Assembly: GCA_020137815.1 (NCBI GenBank)
Contig: CM035350.1
Location: 5,828,001 to 5,892,000 of the forward strand
Direction: 5' to 3'
From: Hormiphora californensis
Lineage: Eukaryota > Animalia > Ctenophora
DNA length: 64,000 bases
The notes under the pieces were generated by a model. It was not told the origin of the DNA, searched no databases, and worked only from the letters and a program-made list of their open reading frames with translations. A program made the position numbers and the translations under genes. Below are positions 1,511 through 36,567 of the stretch, one piece after another. Every line of letters begins with the position of its first letter. Positions within the stretch are counted from its first letter, which is position 1.

Positions 1511-4500
1511 CTCAAACTGGTATCTGCAAATGATGGTCCAGATGAGTCCGAGGGTGAGCTTATGGTTGCCCGACAAGATATCCTCATTACTGATATTCAC
1601 CAGCCGAACCTGAAAGGTGGTGCAAGGTGTTAGAAGTGGGCGTGAAACCTAGTGGATGGGTCAGTCAGGTAGAGTGAAAGTTGTTAGAGATAAGGAAAAC
1701 GGTCGGGTGGAATGAAAGTTGTTAAAGATAGAAAAAGGGAGGGAAATGCTTGCAATGGGGGGGGGGGGGGGGGGTGCTGAAACTGGGAAGATTGCACCTA
1801 CATAAATTCTCTGATTCTTGATCCAGGATAATGCGGTAACGAAATGGTCTTTAGTTGTTACAACGCCCGTCGATGTCTCCAATCTTTCGGTAATTTTAAA
1901 TGTTCTCCCTTTCCAAGAGGACCTTTTCAACCCATCATCTCCTGTTGTTGTGAACTCCATGGTAACGCCATGACTCCCAATCCTCCTCCTCTTACACTGA
2001 ACCTCCGGTCGTTCCAAGTAGATCCGTTTACAATTTTCCTCCTCTAACCGCGCCACTTTCTTGTTGTAGTGGATTGACGCGGCACACGGCTCAAACCTCC
2101 TCCGAAACATCCACTCGTACAGGGTGTCCACTGTGTCTGGGTTAGGGGTCTTCTTGTGAGACCCATGATGGACTCGTGTTGGAATATCGTCTATATGGAA
2201 CACGCTAGCCTCCTTTAACTTGTCAGGGGAGTTGAGTTGTTCACGAAGGAGCCGGTAGCAGGTTCTTTTACAGCGCCGAACCAGATCTGATTCAAATCTC
2301 TCCAGTTTACGGTGTAGACAAACCAGTTTGTTGATCAGCAGGGACCGGTCTTGGGGAACTACTGGTGATGGGGTTGTCATAGCAACAGGAAAACCATCTC
2401 CCCTAGCAACATGATCAGTACAAGGAAGGACAGGTGGTGTACGGCTGGTTTGCAAATAACTGGCATCTTGTGGTTTGTTTGTGTTGTACTCCGCAGCACA
2501 TTCGGCGTGTCTGTTATTGGCATCAATTTGATCTGCAGTAACTGTGCTGTTGCAGTCTCTAGAACTTTTAGTAGATGAATTGTGAAGGGATTCCGGGTTA
2601 GCAGTAGAAGGGTGAGCGGTTCTGGTAGTATGACGAAGAGAAGAAGAGGGATGGGTTTGAAGGGAGTCCAGAGTGGAAACTATCTCACTGCAAAGTAGAG
2701 TTATATCCTCTGCAGCTACCAGGTCCGGAGGAGTTGTACTAATGGCCGCTGTATCATTAAAACTGGGAAACACCTCCCCAGCTGGGGAGGGGAGAAAGCC
2801 TCCTGATCCCCGTGCTGCAAGATCATCCCTTATCTCCTCCATTGCCTCGGCCCGACCGAGGAGACCCCGGGTAAGGGCATCCCTGCTACGTCTCCGCTGC
2901 TCCGCTCCCGTATTAACACGCGACATCCAATCAAATAGCCGGGACAACATATTAGGAGGAAGTAGGAGGGTAGTAATACAAAGGGCGAGCGGATATGCGA
3001 TGTGCGTGTGCGTGTTCTCGCACACAAAGCAGCACAGAAAATCAGAGAGGAGAGAGTGCGGTTTCTGTTTTAAGTAAAGCACTCTATATGCTACAATTAT
3101 ATCCGGACAAGTAGACACAGGTCCGTTATTTTAGAACACGCCAACAGCACAGCCATGAGGAGTAAAGTATAGGATTCCGAGATCGAGTAGAAGTGCATCA
3201 TGTGTGTGTGTGTTGTGGGGAATTATAGAGGGAGAATGTTGAAAATGGTACACACACACAAGCACACAAGCACACACAAACACACGTCACTACTACACCC
3301 AGATTCTACACAACCAACTGATGTAGTGGCGTGGGAAGACATCAAGCTATACTACAAACCAAGCTAAAGGTCACCAACCACTATACTAGCTACAACCACT
3401 ATTATACTAGCTACAAACTATAACAGCCAGATTCAATATATTGCAGTGAGCAGCGGCCACTAGGTGTGAGTCGTCTACATGCTTTAGAGTTGAACTCTCT
3501 CTCAAATAGATATATTTGCATGGGGTAGAGAGGTCTTTATCACTTCCGCATTACGAGAGAGCACACACTCAGACAATATATATTGGGTTTGTAGACACAC
3601 AATGGACAGGAACCAGTTCTTTGAGACCCAAAACTGGCACAATTACGGACACTACCATGGGTGTGCAACTATAAACATGAGGAAAGCAACCAGGCACGTA
3701 CAAACAGTTCACACGTGTAATAACGGTAATGGAACTGGAAATAGCTCGATATAGAGCTGATAGATACAATGTGCGATACAGATATAGAGAGAGAGAGAGC
3801 AGGAGATTGCAGACAGTTCAATAGTTACACAGACAGGGAGCTGCGAAGGGAGGAGGAGGGAGAGCAGACAACATCGTTCAGAGAGGAGAATAAGAGTGTT
3901 AGATGTATTAAACACACTAACAGGTGTTACACTTAAGTATTTCTAGTTACAAAGCAGATTTGCACACAGCTGGAGATCATATCTAGCATCCTACGACAGG
4001 GCGTGCTGTAGTAATTGGGCTGGATTGAAAATACATGAGATGATCAATGTGATGCTATTTCTGGCCGCTACAATTCTCTGATCTCTCTCTCCTTTTCAAC
4101 TTTATAACACTTCATAGCTGCACAAATGATGTTATGTATGCAGACAGCTCTCTCTCTGTCTGGCTGTCACTCTCTTTGTTTCTCTCTCTCAGTTTCTCAT
4201 TTTGTTTCTCTCTCTCTTAGTTTCTCTAAGTGTCTCCCTCAAACCAATTGTTTACTATATGCTTCAATTGCTCGCATGGAAATTATACAGTGAAATTACA
4301 AAACAAGCTCTGTTGTAATAATAGCGGATAAAGCATGCTACAACAAACATCAAACTATTAACTCACTCTCTTAATTTCTTTATTTTCGATCTTTTAATTC
4401 TCTCTTTTCGATAACTCGTTCATTATCTCTCCCTCTCCTTCACTATCTCTCTCTATCTCTTTCAGTTCAGATGGTATAGAATAATGAGGGCAAGACTCCA

Positions 4501-5589
4501 GGAAGGAAAGATTAAGCACTGATAATAATCCTCTCTCGCCGATTATTCAAATAACTACTTTTTCAATACAGGATATAGACAACAGAACATGAGTGGTATA
4601 TGGTTCTGCAGTACAGAATAGGGCAAGATCTGAGCGGGACGAAGGCGCTAGACATACAGTACAAGTACACATGTACTAATTTACTGAACCATGTGGGTAG
4701 CTATATATAGTACTGAGTATAGAAGTGGACCCAAGATACAACTATTGTAGTTTACCCAGCTGGTACAACAAGATACAACTACATGTGTTAGTAAGGAGCC
4801 CTACACACACAGGCAGCTCTACAGTTAGAGTGTCAATAAAGATTGTATAGCATCCACCAGGTTTCTTGGCGGTAGTGTTCCAGGGAAATTCAATCACACC
4901 AGACGATGGAAAGGGGAATTGTAATTCGGGAGGGGGATTAGGGGAGTAACGTAGTAGTAGCAGGGTATACTGTATGTCTGTTGAATTATTCACACACAGA
5001 GTAGTGGCCGGTGGCCCTATAGAGATCTGTATCTTACCCCTTCTTTTTCAAGGAACCGCAATGCATATTCCAAATTCTGTAGTCTCTGTATGTTCAGCTT
5101 CACTCGAGTCGTCTTTTTCTAAAATAGGGAAATGTGGAATAGTAATGGAGCCTGAGTGTAGTGGTTTGGGGTAATCAGGACTTTTAAAATCTCATTACAA
5201 ATGTCATATATGTATGACTCAAATGCCATATTTGAGAGATTTCTACCTTGATTCTACACGTGCAATTAGTTAAACTTACAATTGGTTTCTTGGACAGGAA
5301 CTCCAAAAGGGCAATAAGTCGGAGACCATCCTTTAAATCCTCAAACAAATCCTCTATTTTATCAACATCGCCCTGTTGGAGGGAGGGGTATAATTGGTTG
5401 GCAATGGAGTTACAGTCGGACCCCGATTTACCGGGATGCTCGATCGGGGGAAAAGGTTTTGCCCTGTAAATCTGGGTCCGGTAAATCGAGGTCCGACTGT
5501 ATTATCAGGTTCCCACATGGTAGTAGGGCGGGAGGTTTTGTCATTTTTAATGAACCATGGTGGTTATTAATTGAGCTAACTAAATAGAG

Positions 5590-5624
<35 letters not shown>

Positions 5625-6133
5625 CCTCCATCGCTAATACCTGACCCCAGTCCCTGTAGAAATGGGGCTAATCTAATAAATATCCATGCGTGCCATACGC
5701 CAGTAAAATAAACTCAGCAATTTTTGAAAGCTTTTTCTCTCTGTACAATTTCATTCTCCTGTCACTCTCCAGTCTCTGTCCACAATGTATGTCTTTATAA
5801 TTTTCTTTGCACTCTCGGCATGGTGAAATCATTGGTAATACGGGTGAGAAAAGTGGTACTGGAGAGTTTTAAAACTGGGCTGACGAAAATTCAGATTTAC
5901 AGTTTAAAAGAAAACTGAATGCCCCTAACTAAAATGAATCTTTACTTCGACCTAACTATTTTTGACACAACTTAGCAAAGACCACCCCCTAAAACTGCAG
6001 ATTGAAGACATCAAATTGTATATCCTCAAAATTAAAAACCAAACCAATATATCGAGTAATCCAGCACTTACCCCTTTTAGTTGTACGTTGGCCCATCTGG
6101 TAAATGTCCTAGTCTGGATGTTATCTCTCTGCA
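1511..6133 (-). CDS. CH1 (calponin-homology) exons of a dystrophin/spectraplakin/nesprin-type actin-binding protein; the gene continues beyond the left edge
   Basis: GT-AG exons: 6133-6072 ([21 protein letters not shown]), 5372-5280 ([31 protein letters not shown]), 5118-5038 ([27 protein letters not shown]), 1609-1511 ([33 protein letters not shown]). They join in frame. Sizes 62/93/81/99 bp with a phase-1 first acceptor parallel dystrophin exons 2-5 (62/93/78/93). Confidence 0.92.
1802..2950 (-). CDS. Probable alternative large first exon (383 aa) splicing into the last CH1 exon
   Basis: Uninterrupted same-strand ORF inside the 5037-1610 intron, ATG at 2950 (MLSRLFDW...). Ends ...WIKNQRIY|GTAGGT, a phase-0 donor in frame with the phase-0 acceptor at 1609. 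Confidence 0.65.
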
Positions 6134-7239: not shown

Positions 7240-10003
7240 AGGCCTCCTGTTCGGCAGCGATTTGGAAGCTATTGCTCTGGAACTGTTCGTAGTCAGACTG
7301 GACAAGGGTGACAAGGATCTCTCCATTTGGTCCGTGGACAAAGGTATACTCGATATCATTGAGGGAACCATTGTTCTTCAACTGCTCAAACTGGTCCACC
7401 GACATGGTTAACACGTGGTCGTTATCTGGGGATGGGTGCAGTAGTTAAATAACCATGGAAACAGGAAATGAAACCATGGTAACATGCATACATACTTGAT
7501 GTGATGGTAACTTTGATGTCAGTTACAGATTCCTGGTCGGGTTGCGAGGCATTTGTCTGGAACATCTTGTACTCATCTGGGGAGAGGATCACCTTGTGAT
7601 CCCCATTATCCAGCTCATCAACTTGAAGGTTGAGACCCGCAAATGCGCCTTGGTTTCGCAGCGTCACCCACTGGGGGTTGGTCAGGACGAGGACATACTG
7701 CCCACCTGGAGGAGAGGTTGTGTGGGGGTGTGGTGGACCAAACAACAACTTGTGATAAATGTACTTACGGGCATCTACTTCAATGTTAATGTTGCTTATG
7801 TTTACAACGGTTGCTTTGGGCTTAGTGACTGTGTGTGCTCCGGCTTCGGAGGTGCTTTGGAGGAAGGTTGAGTAGTCTTGTTGGACTAGAATGACGATCA
7901 CAGACCCATCAGCCTGTTTCTGGACTTGCACGTTGGGTCCAGCGAATACCTCTAGCTTGCAGAGGTAGGCCCATTGGGGCGCAGAGAGGGTCAACTGGTA
8001 CCTGCCGGCTAAAAACGCTGCTTAGAACATGTAACTCAATCAAAACATATATAAACGTATAAACACGAAAAGGAATGTGCTGTTGGTGCTGAGATGTGTG
8101 ACTTATATCCCATTGGGGGGGGGGGGGGGTGTCGTACGAGATTTCAGCTGAGGACTTGATAGCATTCCAAGAGACATGCAGGAATCAGTGGGTTAGAAGC
8201 AATGTAATCCCGGGGGCTGATGTCTCTCTCTCTCTTACTTTCTGGGTTGATCTGAATGTTGTACTGACTCTCAATGCTTTCATGTGCAGCCTTGCCCTGG
8301 TTGCCATGTCGGGAGAGGAACACATTGTAGTCGTCCCGGGACATTTTGCAGATGTAACTATTCCCGGAATTGCTAACGTCCAAGGAGCTCAGATCCTTGA
8401 AGGAGCCAAGTCCATCCAGGACTTTATATTGGTCAGCACTCAGGGACAGCACGCACATACCACCTTGTGGAACACGTGTGTTTAGTACATGTTGTACCTA
8501 CTGTACAAATGTCAAGACTGTTTCGAGTAAGAACAACTTGTGCAGTTGTGCACTATTATATCCACCGGACTTACTCGCATCAACAGTCACAGAGAAGACA
8601 TCATCTGTTTTGGCTGGTATTCTTGATCGGTACGCCAGGAATTGCTCGTATTGGTTTTGGTCCAGAGTGACCTTGTACCCGCCGTTGGGCTCCACATCGG
8701 GACTCACATTGGACAGTCCACAGAACTTGCCCCCGTCCAGCATAGAGTCCCATAGCTCCGCAGTTAGGTGAATATTGTATCCACCTCCTTTAAAGGTTTG
8801 GATGTGGGAGTGATTTTAATGCTATATACGTCACAGAGCAACACTTGTTACAAAGAGCTACACAGTATTAGAACGAGCTACACTGTACTAGAACGAGCTA
8901 CACTTTAAGAAAGACTACATTTAATGTGTCACGTAACTCAAACACACAATATGATGTACTTACTGGCAGCAAGGGTGATGTTGTACTGCATGGTGGTCAT
9001 GGGTGGGGCCACGTGTCGATTCTTCAGATAGAGATCATACTGCTCCTGGGTCAACTTGATCACGTAGTTTCCATCTTGCATGAAGTAACTGACATCAATA
9101 CCAGCGAACACATTGTGCTTGTTCAGTTCTTCGAATTGTTCCACAGTTAGGACCAGGGAAAAGCCGGCTGAAATTAGGAACTATATTATAGGCTCATTCA
9201 TCAGTAAACACTGCAAAAAAACGATGAGACTTGACTGAGAGAGAGAGGGAGGAGAAAGATAGAGGAAGAAAGATAGAGAGAGAGATAGAGGGATAGAGAG
9301 AAAGAAAGAGGGGGGGGGGAGAAAGAGAGAGAAGGAAAGGAAGGGAGTGGGGTAGAAAAGAATAGTTAGCCTGTAGTTTATGTTATGCGACGGCTGTCAA
9401 CAAATTTTCCGATGGAAAGGGCGTGTGAGGAAACATAACTATTCAAGTTACTATGCAGGAAACATAACTATTCTGGCTCCCAAGATTAACAAATATGTAC
9501 ATAATTCTAACAAAATTATAGCTAGGATTATCAACAAGAAAACCACCAGCCATCCTAATTAATAATAACTTACCACTGTTCAGTTTGTATTTCTCGTAAT
9601 CTTCATCACTCATCTGGACCACATACGTGTCTCCCTCCATCATGTACTTGATCTTGAGGCCAGCAAACATCCTGTTCGCCTGATGGTCCTTCCATTCTGA
9701 CTCACTCAGTCGTAACACATACCCGGGGTTCTCTGAAGTTAACATGAGTCATGTAAAACAAGATCATTGGCTGTTTGGTTGTTTTAGGAATTAGTGTAAC
9801 TCCACTTCTCTTACCGCAGTTTTTCTTGTATTGTTCATACTGCTCGGCTGTCATATCTATATTGTACTTGTCACCCTCCATGGTGTAGCTTATCTGCATG
9901 TTGGCGAAGGCGCCCATTTGTTGGTTCTCCTTCCATTCCTTTTCGCTGAGCTCCAGAACGAAGGTCTTGGGAGCCGTTTCCATGTCGACATCCACTGCAA
10001 ACC
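7240..10003 (-). CDS. Eight symmetric phase 1-1 exons, each encoding one copy of an unrecognised ~55-aa repeat domain
   Basis: Exons 10003-9815, 9732-9574, 9167-8964, 8787-8575, 8463-8239, 8008-7769, 7705-7496, 7425-7240. All are AG/GT bounded with lengths divisible by 3 (189,159,204,213,225,240,210,186). Shared pattern (F/Y)xLxL(S/T)xx(Q/E)(W/F/Y)..F(A)G(L/I)...G.Y.(I/V).(L/M)(S/T)..(Q/D/E)Y..(F/Y). The last one joins the CH1 exon as EQEA-L-QRDN. Confidence 0.85.
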
Positions 10004-11214: not shown

Positions 11215-11832
11215 GTGTTGGCTCGGGTGCAACTGGAGCTGCTGTCTCCTCGGGTTCAGGTTCAGGTTGTGGAGGTGGAGGTACATTGACAGTGGTATGG
11301 AGGGTTGTCGTGACAACGGTTCCATCACCCTCCTCCGTTGTCATGGTAGTACTGGACTCGGAGTGCACCTCACTACCCTCCCTGGACCAACTCTTTAGCT
11401 TGTAATTAGGGTCATTTCTATCAATCTTCTTCTCATTCAACTGAGATTCCCTCAGCTTCTTGTTTTTCCAATCAGGATCCTCCGCAGTCACTGTTCCCTC
11501 CGCAGCCTTGCCCTCCTTCAACTTTTTATCTTTCCAATCTGGGGTCTCCTCCGCGACAGTCCCCCCACTGGTTGTTGCTTTCTTCAGTTTTACCTCAAAT
11601 GGATTTGGGGGAGGTTCTTCTTCACCCCTTCTTCCGCCAGTCTTCTTCAAATTGGCCTTCCATGCGGGAACTTTACTTTCTTCCGTTATATTGGCACCGG
11701 TCGATTTTAGCTGTTTCTTCCATGGCGGATCATTTGTCCCGGTGGCAGAGGTGGATGCAGCCCCTGCCCCTTTTTTCCAGGAGGGCACGTCCCCCGGGGC
11801 CCGGTTCTGTTGCCGGTCCCGCCAAGACATAC
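11215..11832 (-). CDS. 618-bp phase 1-1 exon (or alternative first exon, ATG 11830) with repeated P-x-W-K..L-K motifs
   Basis: ctag|GT ATG TCT TGG acceptor and CCA ACA C|gtaagt donor; open frame MSWRDRQQ...APEPT. Confidence 0.8.
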
Positions 11833-20196: not shown

Positions 20197-20954
20197 CAGG
20201 AACTCTAGTGTCTAGGTCTTGCAGGGGGATGAAAGCAAGCTAGTTTACCAGGTCTTGTAGTTGGGGGAGGGGATGAACACATGTTAGCCTGACAAGAAAT
20301 TTAGATCTTGCAGTTGGGGAGAGATAAGTTATGTCATTACAGTTATACTGAAGAGAAGCAATCCCTGCTTAGCACTGTAAAACTGGTACAGGAGATTGTC
20401 ACTGGAGAGGACTGGGTTGGAAGAGGGCTTGGTCAATTATACATTTTTGATTTCTAACTCTTTATCTCAGAGTTGGAAAAGGGCTTGGCTGGCATATGGT
20501 TTTCGTACAAGGTATTGTTAGAACAATACCCTTCACTGAGTAGGTGGTCATACAAGATTGCTATCGCCTATCACATACACACAACCTTATCACGCTTAAT
20601 TAGGGCGTGAAAAAACATCTCACACAGACAAACAAATTCGAGAGTTTGTACGTCTGTGTGTCGGTATTTTTCTTCCCGTGGAACCGCGGTGCTCACTTTC
20701 AAAGGGCAAACTCTTTTGCAGAATTCTGCCCATGGAACTAGGGGGTAACGGAAGCTAGGAAAATGTTTTTTGCTGCCTGGTACAATACATGTAGAAACCC
20801 CAACACAGACAATTTGATATCAGTGAATAAAACCAGACATCAATTACAAGTTAAAATGATGTGGCGGGGGATGTGAAAAATACACTGAAAATCGTGCTGG
20901 AACGGGTTATCAAAAGGCTCCCTGGGACACACAAATCATGATGCTGTAACTCAC

Positions 20955-23900
20955 CATCCTCCCCGTGGTCTACAAAGTCCCTCAAATCAACAGCTATCTC
21001 TACCAGCTCCCTCGGTGTTGAGGGTTGATCTTCCTCCGGCAGACAGCTTCCCTCCTCCACCAGGTTGATGCGGAGAGTAGCCGGTACAGGACTCTCCTCA
21101 GATGTCTTTAAGAGGGCGTTATGTTCCCGATGTGGAATGAGCTTATTAGCAAACAGTTGCCTCACCAGATCCTTCTTCACAGACCGGGGTAGATCCAACC
21201 GGACAATACCCTGTCTGATCTTATCAAACAGACTAGGACTCATCACAACAGTATCACGTGTCATCATGGTGTACCCATCATCATCTCCCCTTAGGGGAAC
21301 TGGAGTGACCCTCTTGTCAATATCCCCGATGTTAACACCCGGCATGTCCACCAGTTCAGGGGGAGAGATGGATCCTGCCTCCACCAACTCGTATCCCTCA
21401 TCATCGTCACCCAGTGGCACTGCTTTCACCTGTCTGGTGATGTGCTTGATGTTGATGGTCAGGTCAATGGGTGTCCCATCTGCCTTCTTAGCGGTGATAT
21501 TCAGCTCATCCCCCTCCAGTGTTTCCATCTTGTTGATCTCATCCTCCAGGATCTTCATAGTCTCCTCATCGACATTGCTCTCCCGGAGTGAGTCTATGAT
21601 CTGCTCCTTCATCTCGTCAGTAAGGGGCTCTTCAACCAGTTCGTATCCTTCTTCAGGCTCCATGGGGACGGACACAATGTTCTTGGTTATGTTCTTGATG
21701 TTGATGGTAAGATCTACCGGTGTTCCGTCCTTCTTAGAGGCAGTCAGCTTCACCTGATTCCCATCTACATTCTCGAGCTTGTCCACCTCCTCAAGTAGAA
21801 GTTCTATTGTCTCAGGGTCCAGTTTTGAGTTCTTTAGCGTCATTGTGATCTGGTCCTTCACCACATTCACTGAAGGTGCTTTGGATGTTTGAGGAGCCTG
21901 AGCGGGCTCTACCAGCTCAAACCCATCCTCAATGTCACCCAAGGAAACAGGGTTAATGTTTTTGGTGATATCATGGGTCTCTATATTCAGCTCAATGCTC
22001 TGGGAGGGTTTCTTTACATCAGGGACGGTTAGGAGCCGATCAAGACCCGCTGGAGCAGCTGATGGACTTTTGAGGGGAGATTTGAAGACAGGTGACAGAG
22101 GGATAACTTTAACGGGAGGAACTTCATCAAACACCATTTCGTATCCAGTATCCTCTTCTAACGGGACAGATTTGATATTTTTGGTGATGTTTTTGATGTT
22201 GATGGTCAGATTGATTGGAGTTCCATCCTTCTTCTTGGCATGTAGAGACATGGAATCACCCTGGACCTTGTCCAACTTATCGATCTCATCTTCCAACAAC
22301 GACACTGTCTCCTTGTCCAGGTTGCAACCCTTCAGGGACTCCTTCAGCTGCTCTTTCATCTCCTCAGTCACCGGCTCACACACCAGCTCGTAGCCGGAAT
22401 CTGTTTCCATGGGAACCGGGACAATGTTTTTACCAATCACATCTATTGGTAGGTCGGCAGGTGTTGCTTCAGTGGTCGGCTTCTCAGAAGATTTCAACTC
22501 AGGGACACCTTCATCTGCAGAGGGCTGTACAGGAGCTGATTCTGTAGTTGGCTTTTCGGCAATCTCTAGAACTGGAACCTCAAGATCTTCTGTAGCAACC
22601 GGAATGAGATCAATCGACTCAGGTTTAGGTTGTCCAGGAGTCTTAGTTGTGATTGTTTCTGTAACATTTTTGGTGATGTTTTTGATGTTGATGGTCAGGT
22701 TGATTGGAGTTCCATCCTTCTTCTTGGCATGTAGAGACATGGAATCACCCTGGACCTTGTCCAACTTATCGATCTCATCTTCCAACAACGACACCTGTCT
22801 CTTTGTCCAGGTTGCAACCCTTCAGGGACTCCTTCAGCTGCTCTTTCATCTCCTCAGTCACCGGCTCACACACCAGCTCGTAGCCGGAATCTGCTTCCAT
22901 GGGAACCGGGACAATGGTTTTACCAATCACATCCATTGGTAGGTCGGCAGGTGCTGCTTCAGTGGTCGGCTTCTCAGAAGATTTCAACTCAGGAACGCCT
23001 TCATCTGCAGAGGGTTGTACAGGAGCTGATTCTGTGGTTGGCTTTTCAGCAATCTCTAGAACTGGAACCTCAAGATCTTCTGTAGCAACCGGAATGACAT
23101 CAATCGACTCTGGTTTAGGTTGTCCAGGAGTCTTAGTTGTGATTGTCTCTGCAACATTTTTGGTGATGTTTTTGATGTTGATGGTCAGGTTGATTGGAGT
23201 TCCATCCTTCTTCTTGGCACGTAGAGACATGGAATCACCCTGGACCTTGTCCAACTTATCGATCTCATCTTCCAACAACGACACTGTCTCCTTGTCCAGG
23301 TTGCAACCCTTCAGGGACTCCTTCAGCTGCTCTTTCATCTCCTCAGTCACCGGCTCACACACCAGCTCGTAGCCGGAATCTGTTTCCATGGGAACCGGGA
23401 CAATGTTTTTACCAATCACATCCATTGGTAGGTCGGCAGGTGCTGCTTCAGTGGTCGGCTTCTCAGAAGATTTCAACTCAGGAACGCCTTCATCTGCAGA
23501 GGGCTGTACAGGAGCTGATTCTGTAGTTGGCTTTTCAGCAATCTCTAGAACTGGAACCTCAAGATCTTGCGTAACAACCGGAATGAGATCAATCGACTCT
23601 GGTTTAGGTTGTCCAGGAGTCTTAGTTGTGATTGTTTCTGTAACATTTTTGGTGATGTTTTTGATGTTGATGGTCAGATTGATTGGAGTTCCATCCTTCT
23701 TCTTGGCATGTAGACACATGGAATCACCCTGGACCTTGTCCAACTTATCGATCTCATCTTCCAACAACGACACTGTCTCTTTGTCCAGGTTACAACCCTT
23801 CAGGGACTCCTTCAGCTGCTCTTTCATCTCCTCAGTCACCGGCTCACACACCAGCTCGTAGCCGGAATCTGTTTCCATGGGAACCGGGACAATGTTTTTA

Positions 23901-26900
23901 CCAATCACATCCATTGGCAGGTCGGCAGGTGCTGCTTCAGTGGTCGGCTTCTCAGAAGATTTCAACTCAGGAACGCCTTCATCTGCTGAGGGCTGTACAG
24001 GAGCTGATTCTGTAGTTGGCTTTTCAGCAATCTCTAGAACTGGAACCTCAAGATCTTGCGTAACAACCGGAATGAGATCAATCGACTCTGGTTTAGGTTG
24101 TCCAGGAGTCTTAGTTGTGATTGTTTCTGTAACATTTTTGGTGATGTTTTTGATGTTGATGGTCAGGTTGATTGGAGTTCCATCCTTCTTCTTGGCATGT
24201 AGAGACATGGAATCACCCTGGACCTTGTCTAACTTATCGATCTCATCTTCCAACAACGACACTGCCTCTTTGTCCAGGTTGCAACCCTTCAGGGACTCCT
24301 TCAGCTGCTCTTTCATCTCCTCAGTCACCGGCTCACACACCAGCTCGTAGCCAGAATCTGTTTCCATGGGAACCGGGACAATGTTTTTACCAATCACATC
24401 CATTGGTAGGTCGGCAGGTGCTGCTTCAGTGGTCGGCTTCTCAGAAGATTTCAACTCAGGAACGCCTTCATCTGTAGAGGGATGTACAGGAGCTGATTCT
24501 GTGGTTGGCTTTTCAGCAATCTCTAGAACTGGAACCTCAAGATCTTGCTGTAGCAACCGGAATGAGATCAATAGGAACAGGCTCAGAAGGAGTGGACTGA
24601 AATAATGGATCCTGTGGACCCTCCCGCTGCTCTATATTGACATTCCTCAGAATATTCTGGATGTTTATTGTGAGGTTAACTGGGCTGCCGTCTGGTTTCA
24701 TCGCCGAGAGGGTAAGTTGATCTCCCTCGATACTGTCAACTTTGTCCAACTCCAGCTTCAGTAGATCCCTCGTCTCGTTATCTAGCCCTGAGTTTTCAAG
24801 AGAGTGCAGTATCTTTTCCTTGATGGCAGAAACCGGTGGGGCCGGTCCTGTTGTAGCAGGTGAAGTTGGGGCCAGGAGGACCGCCATATTTCCGACTTCT
24901 TCCACAGGAGAAGATTCCTTCTCTGGATTTTCCTCTTCGTGGGTTTCACGGTGGTAGAAAATGTGCTTGAGGTTGATTGTGAGTTCAATCGGAGTGCCGT
25001 CAGCCTTCTTAGATGTCAGTGTAACATGACCCATCATCAATGTTAGACAGATTGTCTATTTCTTTCGTTAAGAAGAGCTATTGTTTCACTGTCAAGGTCA
25101 CTTCCCTCCAGCGAGTTCAACAGCTGTGATCTGATGTCTTCACTTACTGGAACTGACTTGGGCGGCTCCTTCTCTCCTTCAGGAGTAGATCTGGAAATTC
25201 GAATGTCCTCCAGATGAGCAACAGTTGTAGAAGACTCTTCCTTAGTAACAGGTACATTTTCAGTCACAACAGGGGGCTCTTCCTTAGCAACAGGTGCATC
25301 TTCAGTCACAACAGGGGCCTCTTCCTTAGCAACTGGTGCATCCTCTGTCACAACAGGAGACTCTTCCTTAGCAACAGGTTCATCTTCAGTCACAACAGGA
25401 GGCTCTTCCTTAGCAACAGGTGCATCTTCAGTCACAACAGGAGGCTCTTCCTTAGCAACAGGTGCAACTTCAGTCACAATAGGGGCCTCTTCCTTAGCAA
25501 CAGGTACATCTTCAGTCACAACAGGAGGCTTTTCCTTAGCAACAGGTGCATCTTCAGTCACAACAGGGGCCTCTTCCTTAGCAACAGGTGCATCTTCAGT
25601 CGCAACAGGAGGCTCTTCCTTAGCAACAGGTGCATCTTCAGTCACAACAGGAGGTTCTTCCTTAGCAACAGGTACATCTTCAGTCACAACAGGAGATTCT
25701 TTCTTAGCAACAGGTGCATCTTCAGTCACAACAGGAGGCTCTTCGTTAGCAACAGGTGCATCTTCAGTCACAACAGGGGGCTCTTCCTTAGCAACAGGTA
25801 CATCTTCAGTCACAACAGGAGACTCTTCCTTAGCAACAGGTGCATCTTCAGTCACAACAGGAGACTCTTCCTTAGCAACAGGTGCATCTTCAGTCACAAC
25901 AGGGGGCTCTTCCTTAGCAACAGGTACATCTTCAGTCACAACAGGGGGCTCTTCCTTAGCAACAGGTATATCTTCAGTCACAACAGGAGGCTCTTCCTTA
26001 GCAACAGGTGCATCTTCAGTCACAACAGCAGGCTTTTCCTTAGCAACAGGTACATCTTCAGTCACAACAGGAGACTCTTCCTTAGCAACAGGTGCATCTT
26101 CAGTCACAACAGGAGACTCTTCCTTAGCAACAGGTACATCCTCTGTAACAGCTACCTTTTCAGGTTCTTTAGAAACTGGTTTGGAATCTGGGGCTTTGGC
26201 AGCCTCAGGGGCTTCAGTCGCCTGGAGACAAGGAACTCCTTCTTCAGTCGGTTGATCAAACACAATAGGAATATCTGAAATGAGCTGCTGAGATTTAGGC
26301 TCGGGTTCAGGTTCAGGCTCAGATTTCTTTTCCACATTCACGGTCACGTTTTCAACAATGTTCTCAATGTTGATAGTCAGGTTGACAGGTGACCCGTCTG
26401 ACTTGGTGGCTGACAAAGTGATCTGATTGTCTGTCACAGTTGTCTCCTTCCTCACCTCCTTCATCAGAAGAACCTTGGCTTCCTTGTCCAGAGGTGAGGA
26501 TTTAATGATGGCGATAATTTGCTCCTTCATCTCGGGTGTCAAGGGAACGGGAGAACTCAACGGAGTGGGCTCTGGAGTCTCTTCAGGAGTCTTCGACTCG
26601 GATGTCTTTGTTTTTCTACTCGGCCTCTCCGGTTTCTTTGGAGGTTCTTCAGCGTCCTTGTTTTCTGCTTGAGATTCGGGAGCATTAGTCTTTTTACGAC
26701 TAGGCCTCTCGGGTTTAGGCTCCGATTCAATGAGAGGCTTATCTTTAGGAACCTCGGAATCAATCTTATCAACAGTGGTCGATTCTTTGGTATCCGGTTC
26801 AGATTGTATTTCAGCAGTATCAGGACTCACCAGTTCTTTAGATTCTGGTTTAGTATCTGGGGCTTCAGCGGCCACGGGAGCTTCTGAAGCTTCTAAACAA

Positions 26901-29900
26901 GGAATACCCTCTTCAGTCGGCTGATCCTTTGAAGCAGGAACGTCTTCAGACACAACAAGTTCAGGTTCAGTCTCAGATTTCTTCTCTACATTTACAGTCA
27001 CATTTTCAACAATGTTCTCAATGTTGATAGTCAGGTTGACAGGTGACCCGTCTGACTTGGTGGCTGACAAAGTGATCTGATTGTCTGTCACAGTTGTCTC
27101 CTTCCTCACCTCCTTCATCAGAAGAACCTTGGCTTCCTTGTCCAGATCAGAGGTCTTTAGGATGGCGATAATTTGCTCCTTCATCTCGGGTGTCAAGGGA
27201 ACGGGAGAACTCGACGGAATGGGCTCTGGAGTCTCTTCAGGAGTCTTCGACTCGGATGTCTTGGTTTTTCTACTCGGCCTCTCCGGTTTCTTTGGAGGTT
27301 CAACAGCGTCCTTATCTTCTACTGGAGATTCAGGAGCACCAGCCTTTTTACGACTAGGCCTCTCGGGTTTAGGCTCCGACTCAGTAGGAGGGAAATCTTT
27401 GACTTTTTCCTTGGTATCTGGCTCCTTTGAATCTGGTCCGGAAACTGGAGCATTCGCTGCAGCAGGAGCCTCAGATATATCGATGCTAGGAACGTCTTGT
27501 TCAGTTGGCTTTTCTTTTGGGAGAGACACATCTTTAGCCATTCTTGGTTCAAGTTTGTCAGGAGCCTCGGCCGCCACGGGAGCTTCAGAGGCCTTTATAC
27601 AGGGAACACTTTCTTCTGTTGGTTGCTCTTTAACAGGAGGACTATCCTCTGTCACAACAGGGGGTTCTTCTGTGTTCTCCGCTTTGCAAGGTTTCTTGGA
27701 ATCAGGTTCACTAACTGGCAGTTCCGCCGCCACGGGAGCTTCTGAAGCTTCCAGACAGGGAATACCCTCATCAGTTGGCGTGTTTTTGACGGGAGGAACT
27801 TCTTCAGAAACTACTGGCTGAGATTCTTTTAGTTGAGGTTCTTTATCCACTGGGACCTCTTCAGAAACAGACATGGGCTGATCTTCAGACGGCTCAGGCT
27901 TAGAAACCGGAGCACTTTCTGTGATTTCTTTCGGTGGAGCTTCGACTGCATCAGGTACTTCTAAGGGAACGGGAGAACTCGACGGAGTTGGCTCTGGAGG
28001 CTGCTTCTGGTCCTCAGAAGTTGGAGCTTCTGCAGCAACCGGGGCTTCGCTCGGTAGAACACATGGTACTCCTTCATCAACTGGTTTTGCTTCAGGAGCA
28101 TCTTCGGCAACAGGCTTCTCAGGCTTTGAATCCGGAGTCTTGGCAGCCACGGGAGCATCAGAGGCCTTTAGGGAAGGAAGATCCGCCTCAGTTGGCTGCT
28201 CTGTCACAGGAGGGACATCTTCTGTAACAATCGGCTCAGATTTCGGCTCAGATTTCTTCTCCACTTTCACAGTCACATTTTCAACAATGTTCCCAATGTT
28301 GATAGTCAGGTTGACAGGTGACCCATCTGACTTGGTGGCTGACAAAGTGATCTGATTGTCTGTCACAGTTGTCCCCTTCCTCACCTCCTTCATCAGAAGA
28401 ACCTTGGCTTCCTTGTCCAGATCAGATGTCTTTAGGATGGCGATAATTTGCTCCTTCATCTCGGGTGTCAAGGGAACGGGAGAACTCGACGGAGTGGGTT
28501 CTGGAGTCTGCTTTTTGTCATCGGAAGTTGGAGCTTCTGCAGCAACCGGGGCTTCGCTCGGTAGAACAAAGGGTACTCCTTCATCAACTGGTTTTACTTC
28601 AGGAGCATCTTCGGTAACAGGCTTCTCAGGCTCCTTTGAGTCTGGTTTTTGAAGAGGGAGGGGAGATCCCGGTTTTAAATCCGGCGTCTCAGCCGCCACA
28701 GGAGCATTAGAGGCCTTTAGGGAAGGAAGATCCGCCTCAGTTGGCTGCTCTGTCACAGGAGGGACATCTTCTGTAACAATCGGTTCAGATTTCGGCTCAG
28801 ATTTCTTTTCCACATTCACGGTCACATTTTCAACAATGTTCTCAATGTTGATAGTCAGGTTGACAGGTGACCCATCTGACTTGGTGGCTGACAAAGTGAT
28901 CTGATTGTCTGTCACAGTTGTCGCCTTCCTCACCTCCTTCATCAGAAGAACCTTGGCTTCCTTGTCCAGATCAGATGTCTTTAGGATGGCGATAATTTGC
29001 TCCTTCATCTCAGGTGTCAAGGGAACCGGAGAACTCGACGGAGTAGGCGCTGTAGTCTGCTTCTTGTCATCAGAAGTTGGAGCTTCTGCAGCAACCGGGG
29101 CTTCGCTCGGTAGAACACATGGTACTACTTCATCAGCTGGTTTTACTTCAGGAGCATCTTCGGCAACAGGCTTCTCAGGCTCCTTTGAGTCCGGTGTCTC
29201 AGCCGCCACAGGAGCTCCAGAAGCCTTTAGGGAAGGAAGATCCGCCTCAATTGGCTGCTCTGTCACAGGAGGGACATCTTCTGTAACAATCGGTTCAGAT
29301 TTCGGCTCAGATTTCTTTTCCACATTCACGGTCACATTTTCAACAATGTTCTCAATGTTGATAGTCAGGTTGACAGGTGACCCATCTGACTTGGTGGCTG
29401 ATAAAGTGATCTGATTGTCTGTCACAGTTATCTCCTTCCTCACCTCCTTCATCAGAAGAACCTTGGCTTCCTTGTCCAGATCAGAGGTCTTTAGGATGGC
29501 GATAATTTGCTCCTTCATTTCGGGTGTCAAGGGAACGGGAGAACTCGACGGAGTGGGCTCTGGAGTCTGCTTCTTGTCATCAGAAGGCTTAGCAACATCG
29601 CTGATGGAATCTGGCTTAGCTTCGGGGGCTGAAACAGGCTTCACAGGATCTGCTACAGGCGACTGTTTCCCAGCTTCAATCGGCTTAGTTTTCTCTGGCG
29701 CTTTCTGAGAAGGTGGTGCTTCAGAAGCCTTGACACAGGGGACGCCTTCTTCATTTGGCTGCTCTTTGACAGGAGGAACATCTTCAGTTACGACAGGGGG
29801 TTCTTCTGTGTCGCCAGATTGAGAGGGTTCATCAGATTTCTTAGAATCGGGTTCAATAACTGGCAGTTCCGCCGCCACGGGAGCTTCTGAAGCTTCCAGA

Positions 29901-32900
29901 AGAGGGATATTATCCTCTGTTGGCTGGTCCTTTGTTGGAGGAACGTTCTCAGTCACAATCGGCTGAGGTTTGGATTCCGAATCTTTTTCGCCTGTTACTG
30001 TCACATTCTGAACTAGGTTCTTAACATCAACAGTCAGGTTGACAGGTGACCCATCCGATTTTGTAGCTGACAAAACCACCTGGTAGTCTGAAATTTCTGT
30101 CTCCTTCCTCACCTCCTTCATTAGAAGAACCTTGGCTTCCTTGTCCAGAGGTGAGGTTTTAATGATGGCGATAATTTGCTCCTTCATCTCGGGTGTCAAG
30201 GGAACCGGAGAACTCGACGGAGTGGGCTCTGGCGTCTGCTTCTTGTCATCAGAAGTTGGAGCTTCAGCAGCAACCGGGGCTTCGCTCGGTAGAACGAAGG
30301 GTACTCCTTCATCAACTGGTTTTACTTCAGGAGCGTCTTCGGAAACAGGTTTCTCGGGCTTTGAGTCCGGAGTCTTGGCCGCCACGGGAGCTTCAGAAGC
30401 CTTTAGAGAAGGAAGATCCACCTCAGTTGGCTGCTCTGTCACGGGAGGGACATCTTCTGCAACAATCGGTTCAGATTTCTTTTCCACATTCACGGTCACA
30501 TTTTCAACAATGTTCTCAATGTTGATAGTCAGGTTGACAGGTGACCCATCTGACTTGGTGGCTGACAAAGTGATCTGATTGTCTGTCACAGTTGTCTCCT
30601 TCCTCACCTCCTTCATCAGAAGAACCTTGGCTTCCTTGTCCAGATCAGATGTCTTTAGGATGGCGATAATTTGCTCCTTCATCTCGGGTGTCAAGGGAAC
30701 GGGAGAACTCGACGGAGTGGGCTCTGGAGTCTGCTTCTTGTCATCAGAAGTTGGAGCTTCTGCAGCAACCGGAGCTTCGCTCGGTAGAACGAAGTGTACT
30801 CCTTCATCAACTGGTTTTACTTCAGGAGCATCAACAACAAGAACTGGATTCTTAGGTTTACCAGAAACTGTCCACATCTTGTTCTACCACGGTTTTTGGT
30901 TTCTTCCCCTCCGGTAGACCCACTGAAACCTCAGCAGAAAGCTGTCTTCTTGTCAGAACTATCACAGTTGATGGTTAGGTTTACAGGACTGCCATCCTTC
31001 TTGGTGGTTTCCAAGGTAACAGAGTCCTCAGTCAGGTCAGTTAGAGTACCAATCTGGATAGCGAGAAGGTCCTTGGTTTCCTTGTCCAAGTTATCCATGT
31101 TCTGAACCAGTTCAACCAACCGAATTTTCGTCTCCTCAGTAGCATCTGGTTTTTCAGGCTCTTTTGAGTCTGGTTTGTGAACAGGAATGGAAGATTTCGG
31201 CTTAGAATCTGGCGTCTCAGCCGCCACAGGAGCTTCAGAGGCCTTTAGGGAAGGAAGATCTACCTCTGTTGGCTGCTCTTTCACAGAAGGAACATCTTCG
31301 ATAACAATCGGCTCAGATTTCGGCTCAGATTTTTTCTCCACATTCACGGTCACGTTTTCAACAATGTTCTCAATGTTGATAGTCAGGTTGACAGGTGACC
31401 CATCTGACTTGGTGGCTGACAAAGTGATCTGATTGTCTGTCACAGTTGTCTCCTTCCTCACCTCCTTCATCAGAAGAACCTTGGCTTCCTTGTCCAGAGG
31501 TGAGGTTTTAATGATGGCGATAATTTGATCCTTCATCTCGGGTGTCAAGGGAACGGGAGAACTCGACGGAGTGGGCTCTGGAGTCTGCTTCTTGTCATCA
31601 GAAGTTGGAGCTTCTGCAGCAACCGGGGCTTCGCTCGGTAGAACAAAGGGTACTCCTTCATCAACTGGTTTTACTTCAGGAGCATCAACAACAAGAACTG
31701 GATTCTTAGGTTTACCAGAAACTGTCACATCTTGTTCCACCACGGTTTTTGGTTTCTTCCCCTCCGGTTGACCAACTGAAACCTCAGCAGAAAGCTGTCT
31801 TTTGTCAGAACTATCACAGTTGATGGTTAGGTTTACAGGACTGCCATCCTTCTTGGTGGTTTCCAAGGTAACAGAGTCCTCGGTCAGGTCAGTTAGAGTT
31901 CCAATCTGGATAGCGAGAAGGTCCTTGGTTTCCTTGTCCAAGTTATCCATGTTCTGAACCAGTTCAACCAACCGAATTTTCGTCTCCTCAGTAGGAGGTT
32001 TCTGAGGCTCTTTTGAGTCTGGTATGTGAACAGGATCAGGCTTCTCAGGCTTTGAATCCGGAGTCTCACCCGCCACGGGAGCTTCAGAAGCCTTTAGAGA
32101 AGGAAGATCCACCTCAGTTGGCTGTTCTGTCACGGGAATGACATCTTCTGTAACTGTAAACTGTGGTTGTTTCGGCTCTATTTTCACGGTCACATTTTCA
32201 ACAATGTTCCCAATGTTGATAGTCAAGTTAACAGGTGACCCATCTGACTTGGTGGCCGACAAAGTGATCTGATTGTCTGTCACAGTTGTCTCCTTCCTCA
32301 CCTCCTTCATCAGAAGAACCTTGGCTTCCCTGTCCAGAGGTGAGGTTTTAATGATGGCGATAATTTGCTCCTTCATCTCAGGTGTCAAGGGAACGGGAGA
32401 ACTCGACTGAGTGGGCTCTGGAGTCTGCTTCTTGTCATCAGAAGTTGGAGCTTCTGCAGCAACCGGGGCTTCGCTCGGTAGAACGAAGTGTACTCCTTCA
32501 TCAACTGGTTTTGCTTCAGGAGCATCAACAACAAGAACCGGCTTCTTAGGTTTACCAGAAACTGCCACATCTTGTTCCACCACGGTTTTTGGTTTCTTCC
32601 CCTCCGGTTGACCAACTGAAACCTCAGCAGAAAGCTGTCTTTTGTCAGAACTATCACAGTTGATGGTTAGGTTTACAGGACTGCCATCCTTCTTGGTGGT
32701 TTCCAAGGTAACAGAGTCCTCGGTCAGGTCAGTTAGAGTTCCAATCTGGATAGCGAGAAGGTCCTTGGTTTCCTTGTCCAAGTTATCCATGTTCTGAACC
32801 AGTTCAACCAACCGAATTTTCGTCTCCTCAGTAGGAGGTTTCTGAGGCTCTTTTGAGTCTGGTATGTGAACAGGATCAGGCTTCTCAGGCTTTGAATCCG

Positions 32901-35900
32901 GAGTCTCACCCGCCACGGGAGCTTCAGAAGCCTTTAGAGAAGGAAGATCCACCTCAGTTGGCTGTTCTGTCACGGGAATGACATCTTCTGTAACTGTAAA
33001 CTGTGGTTGTTTCGGCTCTATTTTCACGGTCACATTTTCAACAATGTTCCCAATGTTGATAGTCAAGTTAACAGGTGACCCATCTGACTTGGTGGCCGAC
33101 AAAGTGATCTGATTGTCTGTCACAGTTGTCTCCTTCCTCACCTCCTTCATCAGAAGAACCTTGGCTTCCCTGTCCAGAGGTGAGGTTTTAATGATGGTGA
33201 TAATTTGCTCCTTCATCTCAGGTGTCAAGGGAACGGGAGAACTCGACTGAGTGGGCTCTGGAGTCTGCTTCTTGTCATCAGAAGTTGGAGCTTCTGCAGC
33301 AACCGGGGCTTCGCTCGGTAGAACGAAGTGTACTCCTTCATCAACTGGTTTTGCTTCAGGAGCATCAACAACAAGAACCGGCTTCTTAGGTTTACCAGAA
33401 ACTGCCACATCTTGTTCTACCACGGTTTTTGGTTTCTTCCCCTCCGGTTGACCAACTGAAACCTCAGCAGAAACCTGTCTTTTGTCAGAACTATCACAGT
33501 TGATGGTTAGGTTTACAGGACTACCATCCTTCTTGGTGGTTTCCAAGGTAACAGAGTCCTCGGTCAGGTCAGTTAGAGTACCAATCTGGATAGCGAGAAG
33601 GTCCTTGGTTTCCTTGTCCAAGTTATCCATGTTCTGAACCAGTTCAACCAACCGAATTTTCGTCTCCTCAGTAGCATCTGGTTTCTTCGAACTTGTCTTA
33701 CAATCAGGAGCATCGGCCGCCACAGGAGCCTCAGAGGCTACAACGGAGGGAACTTCTCCTTCAGTCATCTTCACAACCGGGGCAGGGGCTTCAAACACTC
33801 CCAATTTTCTCTCCCTGCGGTTTGGTGCAACATCAACACTTTGATCTACAACCTTCTTTTTCTTAGGCTGATCAGGGTTGACAGAAACATCAGCAGTCAT
33901 CGAGAGCTTCTCTTTACCCGGAACATCCACAGTCACATGGGTATTGAGGAACTGACAATTGATATTCATTTTCACAGGTGTACCATCAGCCTTCTCTGTT
34001 TCCAATGTCACCGTATCTCCGGTCATGTGAGTCAGGGAGGCGATCTGACAAGTTAGGAGATCTTTTGTTTCCTTATCCATCTTATCATTATTGTTGATGA
34101 CACCCACCAGCTGCTCCTTCATCTCTGGGGTGAGGACCCTCTGTTCTCCGTCAACTGACATTTCGGGAGACAGTGCAAGTTCCGGGAAGGGGCTGGCGGT
34201 GCTGCTAAATGAAGACCTACTAAATGAACCTCTACTGCTGCTCCCAGTGAGAGAGCTGTTTGTTATCTCAACCCTGTATTCCCGGGGTCTCTCCCCAACC
34301 GTAAACACGACATCACCATCTTCCATTACGTAGGCTCTGTCCAGTAGAGATTGAATGACCTGAACCTGTTCCATCTTGATAAGTTCAGAGGAAGAGAGAT
34401 TGTTGATCACCTTCACCTTTAACTCATCTTCAGGAATGATTGGAACGCGGGAATCTTCCTTGGGGAGACCGAAAGAGAACTTGATGGGGATGTTCTGGAA
34501 CGAAACTTCAATCTTGACCGAGTCACGCTGTTTAATATAATCGCCCGAATAAAACTTCTCTATCAATAATTTCTTCTTTTCTGCGGTGAATTTGGATTGT
34601 CCAATGGCTTCAGTTCCCACGATCATCACCTTAATTGGCACGAACTTGCTCTTAGCACGACAATCCTTGTAGTTGACCTTCACATCGGTGATTCTGTAAT
34701 CAAGCCCGTACTTGATGTCTAGTACCACGTTGTTTCCCATTACAGTGATGGTATTGTTCTCTAACTTGAAGTTGTTGTCCACCAGCTTGCTAATCAGGGT
34801 TATCTTGGCAGTGTCGTCCAGGGCCAACATGGTGACTACCTTGATAATGGAGTGCTTCAGTCGGAGCATGGAGGGGGTCAGGGGACTTTGATCATACACA
34901 TCCTCTTCGTGGATTGTCATGGCCTCAATGGACGCTTGGAATGCCTTGTCCTGAGGTTTGGACTTGTCATCCAGGATCTTTACATTGAAACTATCCGATG
35001 AGGTGATGGAACCCCTGCTGTCCCTTCGCAGTCCTTCGAGGATAATCTTGCTCCCCTCACGGCGGAACCGGCCGTTCTTGACAGCCCTCACTGCCTGTTT
35101 CCGGTACTCCTGGTTGATGGTTCCCTTCTGGATCTCCGCAATAACGAAATCCTTCACCTGTTCTTCACACATGTCCTCGGGGACGTAGAAGTACGGTGTT
35201 GCAATCTTATCCGATCCAGCAGCATCCAATGCGGATGTATCTACATCGAAATTTAACTCCTCTCTGGTGTCTCCCTCTTTGACAAGGACGGACAGTCGAC
35301 GTCCCTCTAAACGGTAGTTATTGTTGTAGATGGAGGACAGGATAGAGTTTCTTCGGCCGGCGTTCATTTTCTTGTTAGCTGTGAAGCCATCGATCATTTC
35401 GATGAGACTGGCAGTACCAATGTTCGTCTCTCTCTGTATTATTTGTGGGTAAAGTACCCCGGGGAGGTTGAGAGTGATGTTTTGGGTTGTTTTTCCAGAT
35501 TTCATGGTGATGGTGACCTTGTGTAGACCCACATCACAGTTGTCTTCCTGAATAGCCTGGTGAAGACGATCTTTCACGGAGTCAGGGAACTTCAGCCGTC
35601 CTATTGCCTGCTGGATAAACTGTTTCGTGGAGTTGTGGAGCACTTTTGGGTTTTCAGGATCCTTGCCGGGTAGTGTAAACTTCGCCTGGAGATCTGGGCC
35701 AGCATAAATCACCAGGTTGAGGTCTTTACAAGTGAAACTCTCGTGCTCAATTGCCTCGATCAACAAATCTTTCTGAACTTCAGAAATTTTAGTATGACTT
35801 TTCACAAACTCCTTCACACGGTCGATCCTCGCTCGAAGTGAAGCTAAGTCTTTCACAGCACCCTTGAACCCGCTCTTTTTGAGGGCAGCAAACTTGGAAC

Positions 35901-36567
35901 CAGCTCCTAGCTTACCGCCGAATTTCCTATTTTTGGGCGGGCTACTCGGGGGCGTTTTTTGTTTCCCAAACTTCCGTCCTCCAGGAGGACTAGATTTGGG
36001 ACTTTTTCTTACTGGAATACCGGTCGATGATCCACGACCAGATTTCGGTGATCCAGCGGGGGATGTTTTTGGGGAGGGAATCTTCCGGACATGTCCTTTC
36101 GGACTAACAACTTTTGGGACAACAGTGACAGTAGTCCGGGTGGAAGTTCTCACCGTCGCCTCTGCAACAATTGTTTTTGGATATCTTGGTGCTGATCTTC
36201 TCACCTCAATTGGGGAGACTTGTTTCGGTTCGGGCGCTGCTTTTGGAGAAGAAGGAGTTTTCTTTGGGTTGACGGGAGATGGGGTGGATACCGGGCTGAA
36301 CCTATTACTGGTACCGAATGTTGAATGTCCGAATTTAGAGAACCTGTCAGTAGAGGCGGTGCTGCTTGAAGACGGGGAGGATTCGGGAGAGAACTTGTTA
36401 GCGAGAGAGCCGATCCGGGAAGGTTGTTTCTCCCAGGGCTTCCTGACAGGCTTCTCTTCGGTATCTGCTTTTTTCTGCCACGAATCAACTAGCCTATTTT
36501 TGGGGGCACCTACGCTACCCTTGCCTGCAAGCGTAACTCCGCGCCTAGGATTATTATTATCAGACAT
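20955..36567 (-). CDS. Giant (~15.6 kb) intronless exon encoding ~5200 aa of repeat modules and PEVK-like linkers; probable N-terminal extension of the CH-domain gene
   Basis: ORFs 30931..36651, 25043..30877, 24537..25040, 22775..24571 and 20851..22794 continue the same protein repeats. Breaks are 1-bp insertions relative to sister repeat copies. Starts cataaag|ATG TCT GAT (36567) and ends GAG GAT G|gtgagt (20955, phase 1). Confidence 0.85.
22170..24570 (-). repeat. 489-bp coding tandem repeat (~5 near-identical copies, 163 aa)
   Basis: Equivalent positions at 22899, 23388, 23877, 24366 (period 489). Confidence 0.93.
25230..26150 (-). repeat. 42-bp coding minisatellite (~22 x VVTEDAPVAKEEPP), PEVK-like
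   Basis: 14-aa repeat visible in ORF 25043..30877. Confidence 0.95.
31400..33670 (-). repeat. 840-bp coding tandem repeat (~2.7 near-identical copies, 280 aa)
   Basis: Equivalent positions at 31571, 32411, 33251 (period 840). Confidence 0.93.

Follow-up and report, generated by a model that had tools for sequence, protein, structure and literature searches.

An eight-exon array of small, predicted alpha/beta modules in a ctenophore genome, likely part of an alternative lead sequence before the CH1 domain of a spectraplakin/dystrophin-type protein

Spectraplakins are known to be expressed with alternative lead sequences, which precede either CH1 and CH2 together or CH2 only (PMC3352950, PMC4914211, 10.1101/122010), and the boundaries of their actin-binding domain are common to MACF1 and plectin (PMC4914211). 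In those parts of the three reports that deal with the leads, these appear as short peptides or as carriers of lipid, dimerisation or transmembrane motifs, and a chain of folded repeats is not among the forms described there (PMC3352950, PMC4914211, 10.1101/122010); likewise, no specific function is reported for the lead sequences of Shot in the relevant part of the source (10.1101/122010). The locus discussed here was found in a window (the whole analysed stretch of 64,000 nucleotides) from the ctenophore Hormiphora californensis, contig CM035350.1, positions 5,828,001 to 5,892,000, and it consists of eight copies of a small module. On balance, these modules appear to be spliced as a flexible chain before the CH1 domain of a spectraplakin/dystrophin-type cross-linker, where they would serve as a non-catalytic spacer and docking arm. 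To our knowledge, no such N-terminal array has been described in dystrophin or utrophin.

The array occupies the minus strand from position 10003 to 7240 and comprises eight exons (E1–E8), all flanked by AG and GT, all with a length divisible by three and all in phase 1-1. Joined together, they amount to 1626 nt or 542 codons, with a stop-free coding frame, whereas 31 and 29 stops interrupt the two other frames, and their GC content is 0.50 (GC3 0.63) against 0.40 in the introns. The latter measure 63–406 nt, and retention of an intron causes a frame break or a stop in six of the seven cases, the exception being the 63-nt intron between E6 and E7 (7706..7768, minus strand), which is in frame and stop-free and, if retained, would insert 21 residues within a predicted hairpin turn. 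E1 (9815..10003) encodes module 1 with a leading strand within the exon and lacks a trailing strand, and E2 (9574..9732) holds only the core of module 2, with neither a leading nor a trailing strand, its closest copy being E1. In E3 (8964..9167), E4 (8575..8787), E5 (8239..8463), E6 (7769..8008) and E7 (7496..7705), the module is followed by a linker and a trailing strand; an alternative acceptor of E6, at 8001, is out of frame. E8 (7240..7425) ends module 8 with a short strand-like stretch, and its phase-1 donor is kept in all four relatives tested. The copies share 14–48% pairwise identity (28 pairs), the top value belonging to E1/E2, and DNA likeness between exons is confined to matches of 14–31 nt. 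No ninth copy was found in the six frames of the window (next best E >2). On sequence grounds, E1–E8 are genuine coding exons with predicted splice joins, and the claim of a sequence-only reading that one module sits in each symmetric exon, eight in a row, is borne out. The peptides quoted in that reading are all present, and the strand-like ending that it ascribed to five exons is indeed seen in E3–E7, although E8 also ends in a short one; of the five following exons, for which it described glycine-rich starts, four begin with Gly and E8 does not.

From the point of view of sequence, the module begins with Gly-x-Tyr-x-Leu-x-Leu-Thr and a helix containing Gln/Glu-Trp; Gly-x-Phe-x-Gly and a strand come next, then Asp-Gly-x-Tyr-x-Ile-x-Leu-Ser and finally a helix that closes with Phe-x-x-Asn. 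In a profile-profile comparison, the two halves align with a probability of 97.1 and a score of 29.5, which was reached by none of 100 column shuffles (maximum 12.2). The internal two-fold repeat is real, and the strand-helix motif had correctly been read twice in each exon. At the curated cut-offs, none of the eight exons and none of 90 alignment members matches a Pfam or NCBIfam family among the families shown, in agreement with the earlier statement that this is not a known Pfam domain; below the cut-off, no single family is matched by more than five of the 90 members in Pfam or more than one in NCBIfam. Weak Pfam hints to Lsr2 dimerisation (E 0.04), PEGA (0.003), PC4 (0.002) and MBG (0.011) were discarded, being below the cut-off and inconsistent among members. 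PDB sequences compared with the module profiles gave E-values of 0.11 and 0.18 at best, and a literature search found no description of the module, which counts as weak evidence, since text searches are ill suited to a module that has no name. Judged by its profile, the module, of about 55–65 residues, is an uncatalogued domain family with no match in Pfam, NCBIfam or PDB sequences.

For the profile search that had been proposed, the eight exons were turned into a profile and compared with 1.84 billion representatives at a threshold of E 0.001. This returned 91 matches, 80 of which were kept as relatives, mostly exon-sized open frames; the other 11 (P0002, P0024, P0039, P0054, P0060, P0062, P0064, P0066, P0078, P0084 and P0088) are repeat proteins of other kinds and were set aside: with a deeper profile, nine reached at most 13.5 bits per domain and two had no listed domain. 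By a fixed rule, 34 of the 91 matches could each be assigned to one window exon. A GT donor in phase 1 restricts the residue after the exon end to G, S, R or C, and one of these is present in 36 of 36 counterparts (background 19%), which are not 36 independent tests because the rows are related; this set comprises 32 of the 34 assigned counterparts, P0031 and three cluster members, with P0048 (40%, long branch) omitted. In a tree of 121 modules over 53 columns, in which many forks stay open, seven of the eight window exons have a starred clade of their own with their counterparts, E7 shares a starred clade with E6, and E1 forms a group with E2. Such copy-by-copy counterparts and exon-specific clades indicate that the array predates the split of these organisms and, together with the low identity among the copies, support its earlier description as old and strongly diverged. 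Outside the core, counterparts are 52% identical (414/794, 27 pairs, five close relatives left out), a figure that is no proof of copy-specific selection since similarity itself was used to define the groups and there is no divergence-time baseline to set it against; the window's own copies share 14% (121/850, 28 pairs).

Regarding the growth of the array, the first strand begins at the third whole codon in five of the eight exons, from which E2 and E3 deviate by a single codon in one direction or the other, and this start fits the exon duplication that had been put forward. This was nevertheless not the sole route, as P0001 has four modules in one open frame ending at the E3 donor, so that duplication within an exon also occurred in a relative. 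Three further relatives, P0003, P0004 and P0008, contain three to six modules each, in clades other than those of the window exons, and P0004 and P0008 have a charged tail of low complexity at their end, with neither a CH domain nor a Pfam match. The existence of a CH-less module protein in other clades means that the family is spread over at least two proteins. The tail of the P0003/P0004/P0008 protein shows repeated VGKL-like motifs and an Arg-Gly-Pro-x-Arg-Arg-x-Pro stretch, which we take to recall capping-protein-interaction motifs (Pfam is blank here). Other searches were unproductive: a word-based search with the eight-exon alignment against proteins of 140–2000 residues confirmed none of 7994 scored candidates, two metagenome scans confirmed 0 of 292 and 0 of 593 pattern matches and thus revealed neither genomic DNA of a relative nor synteny of the module with CH1, and the ESM Atlas gave no usable match to residues 180–480 of P0004.

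When P0003 was modelled with AlphaFold from a 90-row alignment, modules 1 and 2 obtained a pLDDT of 92–96 and a strand-strand-helix pattern, with a pTM of 0.34, a combination pointing to confident domains with no fixed mutual packing. The window's own E6-intron-E7 frame reached a pLDDT of 90–96 over the E6 core. The predicted fold of the module, read from secondary structure and match ranges rather than from coordinates, is a hairpin and a helix, twice, giving a four-stranded sheet with two helices on one face (three-stranded in E2 and E3). Structural searches matched ACT regions, the SBDS C-terminal domain, the PrgK/EscJ ring motif, KH and RPB11-like domains and designed ferredoxin folds, with best Z-scores of 5.5 and 5.4. 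None of 48161 chains reached Z ≥8, which proves neither a new fold nor an absence of relatives. With Foldseek, the P0003 model matched nothing at E 1e-3 or better, and the E6–E7 model matched two designed ferredoxin-fold proteins at 6e-4. The module thus probably adopts a common two-layer alpha/beta sandwich of the ferredoxin-like or RPB11-like kind, with no identifiable homologue; the ferredoxin-like sheet is matched at Z 4–5.5 only, and the strand order varies with the construct modelled. The label "unrecognised module" therefore holds for the lack of a Pfam family, but it overstated the case as far as the predicted fold is concerned.

What the sequence-only reading had left unnamed, although it is telling of the kind of protein, is a CH1 actin-binding domain downstream of the array. 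The next phase-1 acceptor with coding sequence after E8 belongs to a 62-nt exon at 6133-6072, 1.1 kb downstream, and a scan for exons between 7200 and 6134 produced only candidates with neither a coding look nor homology. This first CH1 exon (exon a, 6072..6133, phase 1 to 0) is equivalent to dystrophin exon 2, and it is followed on the same minus strand by exons b (5280..5372, 93 nt), c (5038..5118, 81 nt) and d (1511..1609, 99 nt), all in phase 0-0. Exons b and d start at the equivalents of dystrophin residues 32 and 89, and exon c, which taken singly has no Pfam match, was assigned by position and frame. The Pfam CH family is hit by two of the exons at E 8e-4 and 8e-3, as fragments below the curated cut-off. 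Exon d matches the single domains of plectin (6e-9), MACF1 (1e-8) and dystrophin (4e-8) in the PDB, and also beta-spectrin, and exon b scores best against filamin (E 0.002). Altogether, three of the four exons match, in order, the actin-binding domains of plectin, MACF1, spectrin, dystrophin and filamin. By homology, the four exons are the CH1 of an actin-binding domain of the alpha-actinin/spectrin superfamily. Provided that chain numbering equals protein numbering, the starts of exons a, b and d correspond to residues 12, 32 and 89 of dystrophin, which are the first whole codons of DMD exons 2, 3 and 5 according to the exon starts given at c.32, c.94 and c.265 (PMC2808359). All three testable intron positions therefore equal those of human dystrophin. 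As far as we know, plectin and MACF1 share these CH1 intron positions with DMD. The array likely lies in front of the CH1 of a spectraplakin/dystrophin-type cross-linker, a class taken from CH1 alone, since the gene leaves the window after this domain (the window ends 1.5 kb on) and spectraplakin, dystrophin/utrophin, nesprin and spectrin are not separable. In the intron after CH1, an inverted repeat (110-1420) with 617-nt arms that are 99% complementary and 77 nt apart may be a foldback element or an assembly artefact.

The array is not the only upstream element compatible with this domain. A low-complexity exon with a phase-1 donor (11215..11832, minus strand) could be internal in phase 1-1 or start at an ATG at 11830; it has no Pfam match and contains six or seven spaced Pro-x-Trp/Phe-Lys motifs, some then followed by LKKT-like residues, which presumably resemble actin-binding motifs of the WH2 type. 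Further upstream, a giant repeat-rich exon of about 15.6 kb (20955..36567, minus strand) starts at an ATG, has its phase-1 donor at 20954 and is a candidate first exon of the same gene. It is made of homogenised helix-helix-hairpin repeats and runs rich in Pro, Glu, Val and Lys, and its frameshifts near 30900, 25050, 24550 and 22800 may be assembly errors. Homology between its repeat and the module was considered and rejected, as its frames are matched by neither profile, and the earlier view that the two are unrelated is supported. Finally, the last CH1 intron contains a candidate alternative first exon (1802..2950, minus strand; no Pfam match), whose inferred phase-0 donor fits exon d and which might give an isoform lacking most of CH1. 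The array is likely to be part of a long alternative lead sequence, as far as exon phases and order tell. Elsewhere, the window contains exons of a papain-family cathepsin with an I29 propeptide (48138-50919, plus strand), an LTR retroelement frame with Gag-zinc-knuckle-protease (56980-59607, minus strand) and a reverse transcriptase fragment with a LINE look (60101-61363, plus strand).

Where the domain begins is a matter on which the two models disagree. In E3–E7, the last strand probably pairs with the first one of the exon that follows, to form a hairpin across the intron, as had been suggested for the first hairpin of the unit; the P0003 model and the turn motif favour this, but the intron-retained E6–E7 model contradicts it. 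Alternatively, each of E3–E8 would be a self-contained ferredoxin-like domain (strand-helix-strand-strand-helix-strand), so that the exon equals the domain, with gene and role unchanged. This is the usual case in arrays of symmetric exons, and the E6-intron-E7 model pairs the terminal strands with their own exon (DSSP strands 74-78 and 167-169), with match ranges of 1-83 and 102-169; of its 50 matches, 23 extend from residue 1 to 78-89, and no more than two begin at the terminal strand and continue into E7. Moreover, with the exon as domain E3 gains four strands, the short terminal strand of E8 is used and fewer strands in the window array stay unpaired. Against it stands the fact that the turn of this model includes 21 residues encoded by the intron, and these disfavour a hairpin. 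In the P0003 model, a strand before each module is followed by a five-residue turn and then by the module's first strand; its matches cover the leading strand and core of module 5 in 14 of 50 cases and reach the trailing strand of module 2 in none of 16, and although its alignment is deepest on module 2 and that module's own trailing strand, this strand pairs forward. In the continuous tandems (P0003, P0004, P0008 and P0006), the trailing strand precedes the next module at a fixed short distance, whereas the length of the linker in front of that strand ranges from a few residues to over 20. In 20 of 25 modules (four of eight in the window, 16 of 17 in relatives, some of these near-duplicates), the turn contains a Gly that precedes the first strand by two residues, like the internal hairpin, where a Gly occurs in 22 of 25. 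Finally, no trailing strand follows the last module in either P0004 or P0008, and E1 has a leading one. The self-contained exon is, for these reasons, a doubtful reading that still deserves attention, and the hairpin across the intron is the one followed below. The intron-spanning unit and the self-closed exon are in any case circular permutations of one fold.

The remaining alternatives concern the gene and the role rather than the domain border. That the array is a separate gene, or belongs to a transcript ending before CH1, like that of the CH-less P0003/P0004/P0008, is improbable, even if the only long continuous module proteins found are those with no CH domain and a low-complexity tail, and even if profile, word-based and CH1-exon searches found no database protein joining the module to a CH domain (the search with the last CH1 exon confirmed one of 11 candidates). 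The E8 donor conserved in relatives, a CH1 exon at 1.1 kb that needs a phase-1 partner and the lack of convincing exons in between all argue against it, as does the fact that the modules of the CH-less protein fall in other clades. Slightly less probable still is that the modules are ligand or nucleic-acid sensors of the ACT, RRM or KH type regulating the actin-binding domain. In structure, they are neighbours of the ACT regions of aspartokinase (Z 5.1), of CASTOR1 (Z 4.4) and of the KH domain of PCBP2 (Z 4.5-4.6), together with RRMs at a Foldseek E of 3.5e-3, but all Z-scores stay below 5.6, a range that the tool calls a common arrangement, identities are 3-24% and the 90 members have no Pfam match to these families. 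RRMs expose the aromatics of RNP1 and RNP2 on their central strands, whereas the module has aromatics at its outward strand positions (inferred from the alternating pattern) in only 1/70, 2/79, 1/90 and 11/90 rows. The GxxG loop that KH domains carry between two helices occurs in 8/90 members, where GxFxG after a single helix is conserved instead; the Gly typical of ACT domains at the first strand-helix junction occurs in 4/81, this junction being a Thr/Ser helix cap, and the CxxC of HMA domains in 0/90. No catalytic or ligand motif was found in the module alignment. As for chance open frames or decayed pseudo-exons, the probability is close to nil: the junctions of E1–E8 are predicted ones, but a stop-free frame with its codon-position GC pattern, and counterparts of every exon (38-96% identity) with an unchanged donor phase, already contradict this explanation.

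According to the preferred reading of a spliced chain in front of CH1, E1–E8 would form a string of small alpha/beta beads that do not pack against each other in a fixed manner, with the trailing strand of E3–E7 entering a hairpin to which the exon that follows contributes its first strand. The array would be one of several alternative leads, used in an isoform-specific manner, and the chain, itself non-catalytic, would hold the actin-binding head at a distance and offer docking sites, so as to position or target it, a role suggested by the gene context. Each copy may offer a surface of its own, and in-frame skipping, which the phase symmetry allows for any exon, would adjust the length of the chain. 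A bolder and rather unlikely extension holds that a new animal domain family, in which the duplication of a hairpin-helix unit can still be read from the sequence, serves as a bead chain in two or more cytoskeletal proteins and has a hairpin cut by each of its introns. A cassette exon would then either donate its last strand to the module spliced next or fold this strand back on itself, with splicing and force rewiring the composition and stability of the domains in the head region of a giant protein that cross-links actin.

The importance of the array lies in a domain family that is absent from Pfam, NCBIfam and PDB sequences, counts at least 80 related records and apparently sits at the head of a spectraplakin/dystrophin-type protein; the lead sequences of such proteins are poorly understood. 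If the hairpin does span the intron, exon duplication will have ignored domain borders and yet remained foldable, which would provide a simple model for circular permutation or strand swapping in the ferredoxin-like fold. The family is real and uncatalogued, its fold is probably ordinary, and what is unusual is its position on a known kind of cytoskeletal protein.

Compared with spectraplakins and plectin (Shot, MACF1, dystonin), the likeness consists of the superfamily CH1, several phase-compatible upstream exons and a candidate first exon within CH1 that would recall their CH2-only isoforms, and it is drawn from the CH1 region; the difference is that a chain of predicted folded repeat domains would take the place of their leads. 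With dystrophin and utrophin, the locus shares a 62-nt first CH exon in phase 1-0, a 93-nt second one and the three intron positions, whereas its third and fourth exons measure 81 and 99 nt, and DMD exons 3-4 total 171 nt against 174 here. With regard to the fold, the module resembles the ferredoxin-like sandwich (ACT, RRM, SBDS C-terminal, PII-like, acyltransferase subdomain) in that its predicted antiparallel sheet has four strands and carries both helices on the same face (Z 4-5.4), but it has neither sequence homology nor the motifs of those families, it shows a two-fold repeat of its own at the sequence level, and in the spliced model its edge strand comes first, as in a circular permutation. 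RPB11/RpoL-type domains and GUCT have the same order of elements as the intron-spanning unit (Z 3.6-3.9, and 4.6 for GUCT with the E6–E7 model), although these scores are weak, identity is 7-13% and the context is unrelated. The hairpin-helix-twice order of the RPB11/RpoL type is presumably what SCOP labels 'DCoH-like'. Lastly, the locus recalls the Ig/Fn3 chains of titin-like proteins and other arrays of symmetric exons, since in both cases old tandem small domains in phase 1-1 exons belong to a giant cytoskeletal protein and adjoin repeats rich in Pro, Glu, Val and Lys; here, in contrast, the fold is another one and the intron likely lies inside a hairpin turn instead of an inter-domain linker.
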